Below, in pieces: positions 24,846-28,645 of a stretch of DNA of 64,000 bases. Made by a program: the position numbers and the translations under genes. The notes below the pieces were generated by a model. It had not been told where the DNA came from. It saw only the letters and a list, made by a program, of their open reading frames with translations, and did not search any database. Every line of letters starts with the position of its first letter. The first letter of the stretch is position 1. Origin of the DNA: Escherichia phage vB_EcoM_C2-3; sequence record OK076929.1. One strand, 5' to 3'.

Positions 24846-25109
24846 ATGTTTAAAGTATATGGTTATGATAGCAACATCCACAAATGCGTGTATTGCGATA
24901 ATGCAAAACGTCTTTTGACCGTGAAGAAACAGCCGTTTGAATTTATCAACATTATGCCGGAAAAAGGTGTTTTTGATGATGAGAAAATCGCTGAGCTTCT
25001 GACTAAACTAGGTCGTGATACTCAAATCGGCTTAACAATGCCTCAGGTATTTGCTCCTGATGGAAGTCATATTGGTGGATTTGACCAACTGCGAGAATAT
25101 TTTAAATGA
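24846..25109 (+). CDS. nrdC: thioredoxin/glutaredoxin NrdC
   Basis: 87 aa, CVYC redox motif, recognised as T4 NrdC. Confidence 0.85.
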   Translation: MFKVYGYDSNIHKCVYCDNAKRLLTVKKQPFEFINIMPEKGVFDDEKIAELLTKLGRDTQIGLTMPQVFAPDGSHIGGFDQLREYFK

Positions 25110-25321
25110 TGCTCGAAGGAACTGACTATATTCATGATTACCGCGGAAGCGCGGTATATGTAGGTGATGAAGTTGCAGTTTATTATGGGTATGGAACTTT
25201 GATGACAGCCAAGGTTATTCAAATTAAAAATAATCGTGCTAAACTCGAAGTTTATTATTCTAATGGTGAAAAGTCTATTTCTAAGTGGAAATACGGCGAT
25301 TGCATGGTCAAACTGGGGTAA
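25106..25321 (+). CDS. hypothetical protein (71 aa)
   Basis: ORF track; ATGA overlap. Confidence 0.5.
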   Translation: MMLEGTDYIHDYRGSAVYVGDEVAVYYGYGTLMTAKVIQIKNNRAKLEVYYSNGEKSISKWKYGDCMVKLG

Positions 25322-25323
25322 AT

Positions 25324-25494
25324 ATGATATACGATATTAGTGCAGCAAGAGCTCCATCAATGGTTACTATTCCTGTTGAAGAATTAGATCGTCTTCATAA
25401 AATTGAAGAACTTCTTTGGGAAATTGAATGTGACCTGCCATCAGGATTAGAATCCTGGATTGATTATGAAGAACTTAATAAGCTTCGGGGTTAA
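25324..25494 (+). CDS. hypothetical protein (about 56 aa)
   Basis: Start moved to ATG 25324. Confidence 0.4.
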   Translation: MIYDISAARAPSMVTIPVEELDRLHKIEELLWEIECDLPSGLESWIDYEELNKLRG

Positions 25495-25546
25495 ACCTTG
25501 GTGGGCGGCTAGATGGGAAACTGTAGAGCCAGAGCCGGAAGAACCG

Positions 25547-25576
25547 GTTTACACTGATGAAGAAACAGTATATAAT
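25547..25576 (+). promoter_or_regulatory. early promoter
   Basis: gtttac 25547-25552, 18 bp, tataat 25571-25576. Confidence 0.5.
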
Positions 25577-25616
25577 GAACCTACAATAAATGACTTAATT
25601 GATATGGAGATGGGAC

Positions 25617-26102
25617 ATGATTACAGTAGATAAGTGGTTTAGAATTAATCGTGTTGATACAGGGCTATGTAATTACTGGCCGGAACTTAGTGCAGGTACT
25701 GTCTTTAAAGTTCGTGAACTTGCAAAAGAATGCGAAGATGATATAGAACCTGATACTGGAATTATTGAAATTGAACTTTCCGACGGAAAGATTATTAACA
25801 TCTATGATAAGCCAATTACATACTGGTGTTTGTGGAATACTGAATCCGTTGAAAATGGCGAAATTGAAGAAGTTGTAGAGCGAACTAATCAAGTTGTTCA
25901 GAAGCCTAAAGCCGATTTTCAAGGTGAACGTATTTCATACGCATTAGCTAAATTAGCTGCACAAGAAAATAACGATGGCTATGAAGGTAACCTGATGCAA
26001 GCTGCCGCAGAGTACATTGAATGGCTTGAAACTCAAATTTCTTTTTCTGACCAAAAGATTCGGCAATATAAGCGATTGCATCAAATGTTTTATAATACTT
26101 GA
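25617..26102 (+). CDS. pin: protease inhibitor Pin-like protein (161 aa)
   Basis: 161 aa and position between nrdC and gene 49 match T4 pin; assignment by position and length only. Confidence 0.45.
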   Translation: MITVDKWFRINRVDTGLCNYWPELSAGTVFKVRELAKECEDDIEPDTGIIEIELSDGKIINIYDKPITYWCLWNTESVENGEIEEVVERTNQVVQKPKADFQGERISYALAKLAAQENNDGYEGNLMQAAAEYIEWLETQISFSDQKIRQYKRLHQMFYNT

Positions 26103-26138
26103 AAAAACTCAAAATTCTTTTTCTGACAGGACATTTTA

Positions 26139-26315
26139 ATGAAAACCGAATTGGTTTATACTGAAAAGTTAAATGGCGGTAAGGTTTGGAAACTTTTTAT
26201 TAAAGGACATTCTACGGACCCTCATATGACCACTTGCGTAGGAACCTATTCTCGTCCTACTAAAAAGATGATTCGACAGTATAAACGATTGCATCGAATG
26301 TTTTACAATACTTAA
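26139..26315 (+). CDS. hypothetical small protein (58 aa) sharing C-terminal 14 aa with upstream ORF
   Basis: C-terminus IRQYKRLHRMFYNT duplicates IRQYKRLHQMFYNT of 25617 ORF; about 44-bp direct repeat. Confidence 0.4.
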   Translation: MKTELVYTEKLNGGKVWKLFIKGHSTDPHMTTCVGTYSRPTKKMIRQYKRLHRMFYNT

Positions 26316-26326
26316 AAATAATAAAT

Positions 26327-26351
26327 ACCCTTATCTATTTAAGGTAAGGGT
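26327..26351 (+). promoter_or_regulatory. RBS-sequestering hairpin upstream of gene 49
   Basis: accctta / taagggt inverted repeat with AAGG SD in loop/arm, 7 nt before ATG 26358. Confidence 0.4.
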
Positions 26352-26357
26352 TTTATT

Positions 26358-26831
26358 ATGTTATTGACTGGCAAATTATACAAAGAAGAAAAACAAAAAT
26401 TTTATAATGCACAAAACGGTAAATGCTTAATTTGCCAACGAGAACTAAATCCTGATGTTCAAGCTAATCACCTCGACCATGACCATGAATTAAATGGACC
26501 AAAAGCAGGAAAGGTACGTGGATTGCTTTGTAATCTATGCAATGCCGCAGAAGGTCAAATGAAGCATAAATTTAATCGTTCTGGCTTAAAGGGACAAGGT
26601 GTTGATTATCTTGAATGGTTAGAAAATTTACTTACTTATTTAAAATCCGATTACACCCAAAATAATATTCACCCTAACTTTGTTGGAGATAAATCAAAGG
26701 AATTTTCTCGTTTAGGAAAAGAGGAAATGATGGCCGAGATGCTTCAAAGAGGATTTGAATATAATGAATCTGACACTAAAACACAATTAATAGCTTCATT
26801 TAAGAAGCAGCTTAGAAAGAGTTTAAAATGA
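26358..26831 (+). CDS. 49: endonuclease VII (Holliday junction resolvase)
   Basis: 157 aa, recognised as T4 gp49; Cys-rich zinc site CLICQ ... HDHE. Confidence 0.9.
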   Translation: MLLTGKLYKEEKQKFYNAQNGKCLICQRELNPDVQANHLDHDHELNGPKAGKVRGLLCNLCNAAEGQMKHKFNRSGLKGQGVDYLEWLENLLTYLKSDYTQNNIHPNFVGDKSKEFSRLGKEEMMAEMLQRGFEYNESDTKTQLIASFKKQLRKSLK

Positions 26832-28645
26832 CAATTGAAAAAGAAATTGAAGGATTGATTCATAAAACTAATAAAGACCTTTTAAACGAGAATGCTAATA
26901 AAGATTCTCGTGTTTTTCCAACTCAACGGGACCTTATGGCTGGTATTGTGTCTAAACACATTGCCAAAAATATGGTCCCGTCTTTTATTATGAAAGCGCA
27001 TGAAAGCGGAATTATTCATTTCCATGATATTGATTATTCCCCTGCTCTTCCATTTACTAATTGTTGTTTAGTAGATTTAAAAGGAATGCTTGAAAACGGA
27101 TTTAAGCTTGGTAATGCGCAGATTGAAACTCCTAAATCAATTGGCGTTGCTACTGCAATTATGGCACAAATTACTGCACAGGTTGCTTCTCACCAATACG
27201 GCGGAACGACTTTTGCTAATGTAGATAAAGTACTTTCTCCTTATGTTAAACGCACCTATGCAAAACATATTGAGGATGCAGAAAAATGGCAAATCGCCGA
27301 TGCACTGAATTATGCCCAATCTAAAACAGAAAAAGACGTATACGATGCATTCCAAGCTTATGAATATGAAGTAAATACTCTCTTTAGTTCAAACGGACAG
27401 ACTCCTTTTGTAACAATTACATTTGGTACAGGAACTGACTGGACTGAACGAATGATTCAGAAAGCAATTTTGAAAAATCGTATTAAAGGTCTTGGTCGTG
27501 ATGGGATAACTCCTATTTTCCCTAAACTTGTTATGTTCGTTGAAGAAGGTGTTAACCTTTATAAAGACGACCCGAACTATGATATTAAGCAGCTTGCTCT
27601 AGAGTGTGCAAGCAAAAGGATGTATCCTGATATTATTTCAGTTAAGAACAATAAAGCTATCACCGGTTCATCTATTCCTGTTTCTCCAATGGGTTGTCGT
27701 AGTTTCTTGAGTGTATGGAAAGATTCGACTGGTAATGAAATTCTTGATGGACGTAATAATCTTGGTGTTGTAACACTGAATCTTCCTCGTATTGCGTTGG
27801 ATTCTTATATTGGAACACAGTTCAATGAACAGAAATTTACTGAATTGTTCAATGAGCGAATGGATTTATGTTTTGAAGCTTTGATGTGTAGAATTAGTTC
27901 CTTAAAAGGAGTTAAAGCGACTGTTGCTCCTATTCTTTACCAAGAAGGTGCATTCGGGGTTCGTCTTAAACCTGATGACGATATAATTGAGTTATTTAAA
28001 AATGGTAGAAGTTCAGTGTCTTTAGGATACATTGGTATTCACGAATTGAATATTCTTGTCGGTCGTGATATTGGACGAGAAATTTTAACTAAAATGAATG
28101 CTCATCTTAAACAGTGGACTGAAAGAACTGGATTTGCTTTTAGTTTATATTCGACTCCTGCTGAAAACCTTTGTTATCGCTTCTGTAAACTTGATACAGA
28201 AAAATATGGAAGTGTAAAGGATGTTACTGATAAAGGCTGGTACACTAATAGTTTCCATGTTTCAGTAGAAGAAAATATTACTCCGTTTGAAAAGATTTCT
28301 CGTGAAGCCCCATATCATTTCATTGCGACAGGTGGTCACATTTCTTATGTTGAACTTCCTGATATGAAAAATAACCTAAAAGGTCTTGAGGCTGTCTGGG
28401 ATTATGCTGCACAACATTTAGATTATTTTGGTGTTAACATGCCAGTAGATAAATGTTTTACGTGTGGAAGTACCCATGAAATGACTCCTACTGAAAACGG
28501 ATTTGTTTGTTCTATTTGTGGAGAAACTGACCCTAAAAAGATGAACACAATAAGAAGAACATGCGGATATCTTGGAACTCCTAGCGCTGTCCCATGGAAT
28601 TTAGGTAAAATGAAAGAAATGGTAAAACGAGTAAAACATGCATAG
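26828..28645 (+). CDS. nrdD: anaerobic ribonucleoside-triphosphate reductase NrdD (uninterrupted)
   Basis: 605 aa continuous ORF; C-terminal zinc ribbon CFTCG...CSICG and glycyl radical motif RTCGYLG. Confidence 0.95.
   Translation: MTIEKEIEGLIHKTNKDLLNENANKDSRVFPTQRDLMAGIVSKHIAKNMVPSFIMKAHESGIIHFHDIDYSPALPFTNCCLVDLKGMLENGFKLGNAQIETPKSIGVATAIMAQITAQVASHQYGGTTFANVDKVLSPYVKRTYAKHIEDAEKWQIADALNYAQSKTEKDVYDAFQAYEYEVNTLFSSNGQTPFVTITFGTGTDWTERMIQKAILKNRIKGLGRDGITPIFPKLVMFVEEGVNLYKDDPNYDIKQLALECASKRMYPDIISVKNNKAITGSSIPVSPMGCRSFLSVWKDSTGNEILDGRNNLGVVTLNLPRIALDSYIGTQFNEQKFTELFNERMDLCFEALMCRISSLKGVKATVAPILYQEGAFGVRLKPDDDIIELFKNGRSSVSLGYIGIHELNILVGRDIGREILTKMNAHLKQWTERTGFAFSLYSTPAENLCYRFCKLDTEKYGSVKDVTDKGWYTNSFHVSVEENITPFEKISREAPYHFIATGGHISYVELPDMKNNLKGLEAVWDYAAQHLDYFGVNMPVDKCFTCGSTHEMTPTENGFVCSICGETDPKKMNTIRRTCGYLGTPSAVPWNLGKMKEMVKRVKHA

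Follow-up and report, generated by a model that had tools for sequence, protein, structure and literature searches.

In T4-related phages, recombination, both illegitimate and homologous, adds, removes and reshuffles small dispensable open reading frames lying between the conserved core genes. To our knowledge, T4 PinA is the only characterised member of protease-inhibitor family I24. PinA (UniProt P07068) inhibits Lon-dependent degradation, and its 161-residue form (pin161) was used in the PinA/Lon degradation assays (PMC8835725). Domain mapping of PinA is not described in that paper, and no publication was found that traces the C-terminus of PinA to an adjacent gene. Similarly, no literature was found on the protein family DUF7279 or on RB69ORF087c, its member in RB69. 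Comparison of the locus described here with its relatives indicates that the C-terminal 15 residues of T4 PinA lie outside the PinA family and are a captured piece of a neighbouring gene since lost by T4. This is relevant to mapping the Lon-binding surface of PinA and to annotating pin genes of 148 or 161 residues.

The 64,000-nt stretch of DNA analysed (the window) was assigned to Tequatrovirus (T4-like). An 841-bp query covering 25560-26400 matched 722 phage records, the best at 98.9% identity. Downstream of nrdC (24846-25109) come two small ORFs, then 49.1 and then pin (25617-26102), which encodes the 161-aa fused form of a protein of the PinA Lon protease inhibitor family and aligns with T4 pin. 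A spacer (26103-26138) separates pin from ORF58 (26139-26315), an intact DUF7279/phrog_3272 gene and the counterpart of RB69ORF087c. The gene 49 leader (26318-26358), gene 49 (endonuclease VII; 26358-26831), which is given for context only, and nrdD (from 26828) follow. All features from pin to gene 49 lie on the plus strand. T4 carries the same pin gene at the same position, in the same 161-aa fused form and with the same 15-residue tail, and the two gene bodies differ at 18/402 nt. T4 differs in having neither the small gene nor the stub of pin sequence that precedes it in the window, and its gene 49 hairpin stands directly after pin. The junction codons differ as well, reading DRMIQ in T4 and DQKIR in the window.

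Two direct repeats span the end of pin and the interval that follows it. Repeat B (26057-26102) recurs as B' (26270-26315) with 40 of 46 nt identical, stop codon included, at a start-to-start spacing of 213. Repeat A (26029-26051) recurs as A' (26105-26127) over 23 nt with one mismatch, at a spacing of 76. The order along the DNA is A, B (with stop), A', the 131-nt ORF58 body and B' (with stop). The first-pass annotation, made from the sequence alone, had reported that the last approximately 44 bp of pin recur at 26270-26313 with about 85% identity. That repeat is real, with 39/44 positions (88.6%) identical over those 44 nt. The annotation had also read both proteins as ending IRQYKRLH(Q/R)MFYNT, which the protein ends bear out (pin, ...SDQKIRQYKRLHQMFYNT; ORF58, ...KKMIRQYKRLHRMFYNT; shared tail, MIRQYKRLHRMFYNT). 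A second duplicated piece of 17 bp was correctly located, at or near the positions given, but its length is 23 nt with one mismatch.

To assess the significance of the repeats, the region 25500-26500 was shuffled 300 times with dinucleotide composition preserved. In the shuffles, the closest-matching 46-mers shared a mean of 27.0 identities (sd 1.1, maximum 31), against 40 for B/B', and the closest-matching 23-mers a mean of 16.9 (sd 0.7, maximum 19). The annotation had allowed that its reading would fall if self-alignment found the repeats not significant; both lie above all 300 shuffles. B and B' differ at five positions within the 14 shared codons, four of them synonymous, and the codon before these also differs (K in pin, M in ORF58). 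No evidence of any function was found for the repeats themselves. A sigma-70 promoter scan placed no promoter-like site in either repeat, the number of sites being that expected from shuffles. A candidate MotA box or -10 element inside B was rejected by eye, the spacing being too short.

The window pin belongs to the PinA family. It scored 162.2 bits with Pfam PF10465 (Inhibitor_I24, PinA; cut-off 27), the match spanning residues 4-141, and residues 1-146 aligned to phrog_2167 (E 3e-66). Identity to the 161-aa cluster representatives was 92-98%. Residues 147-161 match positions 44-58 of phrog_3272, the family of the small gene. The protein thus comprises an Inhibitor_I24 body (residues 1-146) and a tail captured from DUF7279 (residues 147-161). 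Pins of other lineages end in ...SFSDRAF, ...FSSKSF, ...FSDRGF or ...ERRLS, and neither these nor the 13 representatives of 148-aa pin clusters (pin148) nor the pins of other genera carry the tail.

ORF58 is a full-length DUF7279 protein (PF23945). The match scored 62.7 bits, against a cut-off of 24.5, and ran over profile positions 1-53 of 53 and ORF58 residues 7-56; phrog_3272 was matched over residues 1-58 (E 3.4e-34). Homologues were detected by tblastn in 357 phage records, and named family members include RB69ORF087c, VR7 ORF082c and S16 gp48.1. ORF58 is a real gene under coding constraint, with dN/dS of 0.06-0.25 against six homologues. Where the loci were read, homologues lie directly upstream of gene 49, as ORF58 does, in Mosigvirus (RB69ORF087c, UGJNEcP2), Dhakavirus (LHE83) and Gaprivervirus (ECML-359). 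Gelderlandvirus S16 has a more distant DUF7279 copy in which the tail is present. When 11 homologues drawn from four genera were aligned, conservation was highest in RPTKKMIRQ(Y/F)KR(L/F)HR.F, and 9 of the 15 tail positions (M44, I45, R46, Q47, K49, R50, H52, R53 and F55) were invariant. The AlphaFold2 model of ORF58 comprises three strands followed by a sole helix at residues 42-56, which is the tail and the most confident block (best model pLDDT 81; other four models 55-61).

Since the PinA profiles end at residue 141 or 146, other pins are tail-less and the tail is conserved in DUF7279, the shared tail is native to DUF7279 and foreign to pin. For repeat B, the original is thus B', comprising the native codons of the DUF7279 C-terminal helix and the TAA stop. 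B is the copy, made of the last 14-15 codons and stop of a DUF7279 gene and now serving as the pin C-terminal tail. For repeat A the polarity is the reverse. A consists of native pin codons, (E)TQISFSD, directly before the fusion point, and the same sequence closes the pin body in all the alleles described below; A', in the spacer before ORF58, is a dead copy.

A profile search of 1.84 billion protein representatives returned only three to four true DUF7279 clusters at 50% identity, together with apparently spurious repetitive proteins. The same search found no deeper homology and no tail-bearing protein other than pin. Fold searches with the ORF58 model gave no match below E 0.15 in the PDB and none at E <=0.001 in BFVD, where the best matches were uncharacterised proteins of the T4-like phages S16 (1.1e-3) and Merlin (8.8e-3). 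Weaker BFVD matches were to assorted unrelated phages and viruses, and neither database gave a functional lead. A scan of IMG/VR with the DUF7279 alignment yielded 11 loci, which are too few for population analysis.

Four alleles of the interval were distinguished in Tequatrovirus, with lengths measured from a shared pin anchor (ATGCAAGC...) to the gene 49 start. Thirteen loci were read base by base and the remainder were classified by BLAST counts. Type I (157 nt; T4, T2, RB14) has pin161 only. These are the related phages with the unduplicated arrangement for which the first-pass annotation had proposed a search, and in all three pin stands directly before gene 49. Type II (371 nt; the window, RB32, RB33, OES_C-3, ZN18, SHFML-26, EC.W15-4) comprises pin161, TGAAAA, the A' segment of 34 nt and an intact ORF58. 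Type III (294 nt; GRNsp7, IME340, JLBYU24) has a pin148 ending ...SFSDRAF-stop, a TAATG stop/start overlap, ORF58 and the gene 49 hairpin. Type IV (126 nt; JoYop, ime09) has pin148 only, ORF58 having been removed between TTTTAAT and TTTTACAAT. The repeats of type II could support deletions, B/B' yielding a type I-like layout and A/A' a type III-like one.

Junction BLAST counts were made in a 50,697-record phage collection and agreed with an even sample of 60 records. The type II junction was found in 113 records, type IV in 69 and type III in at least 45. The fused A-B sequence was found in 362 records, which with the type II count leaves approximately 249 of type I. The genes and the type II allele are already public, and the locus is an ordinary structural polymorphism present in more than 100 sequenced phages. 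No structural difference separates the window from other type II carriers (RB32, RB33, vB_EcoM-fFiEco06, YUEEL01, ZN18), of which it is one more; in RB32 and RB33 the B-A'-ORF58 junction is 100% identical over 81 nt. Public type II records annotate pin and a hypothetical protein.

The spacer of the window consists of an A-run join (26101-26107) and the A' remnant (26105-26138). The remnant is non-coding and corresponds to the last 34 nt of an unfused pin148; aligned with type III ...AAACTCAAATTTCTTTTTCTGACCGAGCATTTTAATG, it would read TQNSFSDRTF-stop. Within it lie a Shine-Dalgarno-like AGGA (26128-26131), placed 7 nt ahead of the ORF58 start codon, and a relic of the TAATG stop/start overlap (26137-26141). 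The start of the small gene therefore differs between the alleles. In type III its translation is coupled to that of pin by the TAATG at the pin stop, with only a weak GAG upstream, whereas in the window it follows a dead pin stub with an AGGA site of its own. Type II sequences have AGGACA or AAGGCA where type III sequences have CGAGCA or CGAGCG, and the Shine-Dalgarno-like motif lies 7-8 nt before the ATG. The presence of AGGA or AAGG in the type II stub would fit selection for independent initiation of ORF58.

The interval between pin and gene 49 has probably undergone two successive rearrangements. The first was a deletion-fusion, and in the second the small gene was most likely re-acquired. 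Since the layout is split in the outgroups, type III is ancestral and pin161 is the product of a deletion-fusion. The starting point was a type III locus, in which pin148 ended ...SFSDRAF-stop, the stop overlapped the DUF7279 start (TAATG), and the DUF7279 C-terminal helix (...RPTKKMIRQYKRLHRMFYNT) was followed by the gene 49 hairpin. A 137-bp deletion then removed the pin stop and the DUF7279 body and created pin161, in which the final 15 codons of DUF7279 continue in frame from codon 146 of pin. The T4 sequence ...TCTGACCGA/ATGATTC... is exactly the GRNsp7 pin sequence ...TCTGACCGA followed by ATGATTC... of GRNsp7 ORF58, and pin161 is accordingly an in-frame fusion. The T4 junction, GAC CGA/ATG ATT, is the unmutated concatenation of its parents (pin148 ...GACCGA and DUF7279 ATGATT).

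In the second rearrangement, illegitimate recombination would have brought together a type I genome and a type III-like genome from a different lineage. One side of the join would lie just past the pin161 stop (...ACTTGAAAA) and the other side 34 nt before the end of the second genome's pin148 (AACTCAAA...). The product would be the type II locus, in which pin161 (A-B) is followed by the dead remnant of a pin 3' end (A'), by the complete DUF7279 gene with B' at its end, and by gene 49. Thereafter A' would have been non-coding, and would now supply the AGGA or AAGG ribosome-binding site of the uncoupled small gene.

The mechanism and order of this regain are what we infer, the order from parsimony and from junction and diversity patterns rather than from a tree. 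The order from type I to type II is favoured by the mutated type II junctions, the near-invariance of type II ORF58, the lineages of B and B', and the pin148 endings considered below. At the fusion junction (codons Q146-K147; 26052-26057), the window reads CAA AAG and was compared with T4, SHFML-26, RB14 and GRNsp7. All sampled type II junctions were mutated, to CAA ATG or CAA AAG, and that of the window has two further point changes relative to T4. With a CGA-junction probe, the best full-length type II match was 97.9%. Among five type II phages, ORF58 differed at 0-1/177 nt, the pin bodies at 6-35/402 and gene 49 at 2-11/340, and ORF58 was present at >=99% amino-acid identity in 110 records. 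Type III ORF58 genes are 4-8/177 nt apart from one another. The type II small-gene module thus looks young and of single origin. The window B is 2 nt from T4 B, 2 nt from GRNsp7 B' and 6 nt from its own B', and type II and type III ORF58 are separated by a dS of 0.22-0.26, so B and B' derive from different lineages. A simple tandem duplication, with two complete adjacent copies, does not describe the locus, because the first unit has no body and B and B' are of different lineages.

Two observations stand against the second rearrangement as proposed. The join would need an illegitimate event with only an A-run or CTTGA as microhomology, and the junction has three A's more than a simple CTTGAAA crossover would leave. 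Among the loci compared, no type III donor was identified whose ORF58 has precisely the type II haplotype (HSTDPH, TAA stop).

The order of events may instead be reversed, although this is considered unlikely. Type II would then be the older form, derived from type III by a partial tandem duplication running from A to the end of the small gene and a subsequent in-frame deletion in the first copy that gave pin161. T4-type loci would have arisen later by deletion between B and B' (or between the A-runs that follow them), and type III-like loci by deletion between A and A'. Types I and III-like are indeed each a single repeat-mediated deletion away from type II, and the repeat spacings of 213 and 76 match the length differences between alleles. 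A join within the AAAA that follows B and B' would give the T4 sequence ACTTGAAAATAATAAATA exactly, and types I and II share both the position of the fusion codon and a derived R-to-Q change. However, three events are needed rather than two, and no intermediate with two copies of ORF58 was seen. No pin148 representative ends in DRTF or DKAF, as would be expected after A/A' deletion of type II. The near-invariance of type II ORF58 amid diverged flanks, the lack of any type II allele with the pristine T4 junction, and a divergence between B and B' that exceeds that of B from the B' of other lineages also argue against it. Fusion before regain is retained as the favoured order.

Loss and fusion of the small gene have recurred outside these alleles. 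In a Mosigvirus-like contig (L030), pin ends ...EYLERR/FHRDFYNVY, and comparison with RB69 shows that the DNA separating two ACGTTT motifs has been deleted. This is a second, independent in-frame fusion of pin to a DUF7279 C-terminus. PhAPEC2 shows a clean loss of the small gene, and in O157 typing phage 3 the gene is split into two small ORFs. By these comparisons the small gene has been lost at least three times, differently in T4, in JoYop and ime09, and in PhAPEC2 and L030. Mosigvirus also has a second DUF7279 paralogue immediately upstream of pin. The events at the locus are of kinds well known in T4-like phages, namely indel mosaicism and the fusion of genes through deletion. They are unusually legible here, however: a characterised protein has captured the C-terminus of its neighbour in frame, and the two halves of the scar stand next to each other. 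The locus offers a clean, datable record of how a gene in a plastic T4-like region was lost, captured in part in frame, and probably regained.

Whether the tail does anything on pin is a separate matter from this structural history. At positions invariant in DUF7279, pin tails vary (M to K; R to Q in T4; H to N in RB14; and R to Q in all). They have three variable non-synonymous sites and the fixed R-to-Q change, against one synonymous site, while ORF58 tails within the genus have no non-synonymous and three synonymous changes (p ~0.07 by hand calculation, on small numbers). The case that these counts make for relaxed constraint on the pin tail is thin. In a structure model of pin161, confidence was low, with a pLDDT of 60 overall and below 50 for the tail, which was not confidently placed. 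Taken together, the substitutions at DUF7279-invariant positions and the low model confidence at residues 140-161 suggest that the tail is a tolerated passenger.

The tail may alternatively be a portable functional peptide, for example a basic and aromatic helix that binds Lon or another host target, and may be selected on both proteins. This reading concerns function and is compatible with the history proposed above, and it is judged quite unlikely. On pin, the 15 codons of the tail are open and intact in approximately 360 records, fusion of pin to a DUF7279 C-terminus arose twice independently, and DUF7279 paralogues flank pin on both sides in Mosigvirus. The predominance of synonymous differences between B and B' (4/5 in the 14 shared codons) points the same way. 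Against this, pin tails are substituted at four DUF7279-invariant positions, and the tail-less pin148 is common (types III and IV, >110 records); pins without a tail are likewise common in other genera. The helix is integral to the small DUF7279 fold but is predicted at pLDDT <50 on pin, and no experiment or structure was found that addresses the tail. The stronger form of the proposal, in which the DUF7279 helix is a host-targeting peptide (for example, Lon-binding) captured adaptively by pin at least twice, is regarded as a long shot. Were it true, the DUF7279 genes found beside pin in several genera would act as partners in the inhibition of Lon or would modulate it, and the T4 PinA of the textbooks would be a chimera of two parts, with the tail contributing to its activity. 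The passenger reading is preferred.

The first-pass annotation had interpreted the locus as a recombination scar left where a small gene inserted into a duplicated pin end. The scar stands, but its polarity does not, as the tail is native to the small gene. Insertion of a small foreign gene into the end of pin, with duplication of the target and with a tail that was originally pin sequence, is very improbable. The repeats do flank the small ORF, and T4 shows a seemingly empty site. That site nevertheless holds a piece of the small gene and so is not the ancestral vacancy that a foreign insert would require. The outgroup comparison contradicts the insertion model, as in Mosigvirus, Dhakavirus and Gaprivervirus the small gene, tail included, is conserved at the syntenic position ahead of gene 49. 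LHE83 has the small gene with no pin annotated, or evident in the 1.5 kb read upstream, and the PinA profiles and the pins of other lineages are without the tail. A simple duplication on either side of an insert would not give the order A-B-A'-body-B', and the interval shows no simple target-site duplication. Nor does the segment resemble a mobile element or homing cassette. Its 213 bp contain only ORF58, with no match to a nuclease or transposase family, and there is no endonuclease, transposase or integrase in the interval. Chance similarity or an assembly artefact, in whose favour there is the AT-rich composition and nothing further, can be dismissed, as A/A' and B/B' both exceed all 300 shuffles and the B-A' junction (26070-26150) occurs at >=80% coverage in 113 independent phage records, including RB32 and RB33.

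The gene 49 leader contains a late-promoter-like AATAAATA (26320-26327), a terminator-like match (26327-26351) and a hairpin. An Rfam search of 25000-27000 returned nothing significant and one sub-threshold match (ohsC, E 0.28), which falls on this hairpin. In this hairpin, an established element of translational control, the AUG and the ribosome-binding region of gene 49 are base-paired. The predicted RNA fold has a dG of -19.7 kcal/mol (z -4.2). The leader forms the right-hand boundary common to all four alleles, and it is kept across alleles and genera.

A strong hairpin was predicted by RNA folding in the gene 49 leader (window 26318-26358; dG -19.7 kcal/mol, z -4.2), with the gene 49 ribosome-binding region and AUG paired within it. 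The 5' arm contains the late-promoter-like sequence AATAAATA. This element was kept in all alleles and genera read, and it formed the fixed right-hand limit of all deletions in the interval between pin and gene 49.

Within the same interval, the dead pin stub ahead of the 58-aa DUF7279 ORF has gained a purine-rich AGGA at window 26128-26131, where type III alleles carry CGAGC as coding sequence, and AAGG was found at the equivalent stub positions in SHFML-26 and EC.W15-4 (loci L022 and L023). These motifs look like a Shine-Dalgarno site evolving once translational coupling was lost.

A second DUF7279/phrog_3272 paralogue (MQVKLLYR...VRPTKRQLRKAKRSHRNFYREY) was located directly upstream of pin in Mosigviruses (L005, a Mosigvirus locus, 1044-1214; L030, a Mosigvirus-like contig from Logan SRR20302901, 1329-1499), so two members of the family bracket pin. 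One database protein (P0037, 191 aa) comprised a read-through from the upstream paralogue into pin. At L030:1860-1930, a Mosigvirus-type pin is fused in frame with the final 9 codons of the DUF7279 gene that follows it, and the join lies at a microhomology of sequence ACGTTT. This fusion is an independent event and was seen in one contig only. In E. coli O157 typing phage 3 (L021:1463-1641), the annotation divides the DUF7279 gene that lies upstream of gene 49 into two small ORFs (29 and 30 aa), and this gene is probably a frameshifted pseudogene.

Directly adjoining the scar between pin and gene 49, the segment between nrdC and 49.1 is a second mosaic replacement. In T4 this gap is occupied by 49.3 and 49.2, whereas the window (25106-25494) contains a 71-aa phrog_2112 ORF and a 56-aa phrog_3402 ORF labelled "antitoxin from a toxin-antitoxin system", the latter also present in SHFML-26 and JoYop. 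A terminator-like hairpin, comprising a 7-bp stem followed by T-rich sequence, falls within the phrog_3402 ORF (25441-25458), shortly upstream of the 49.1 start.

The nrdD gene (window 26828-28645) is a single unbroken ORF of 605 aa, whereas T4 nrdD consists of two pieces joined around a group I intron encoding I-TevII; the intron is therefore absent from the window phage.
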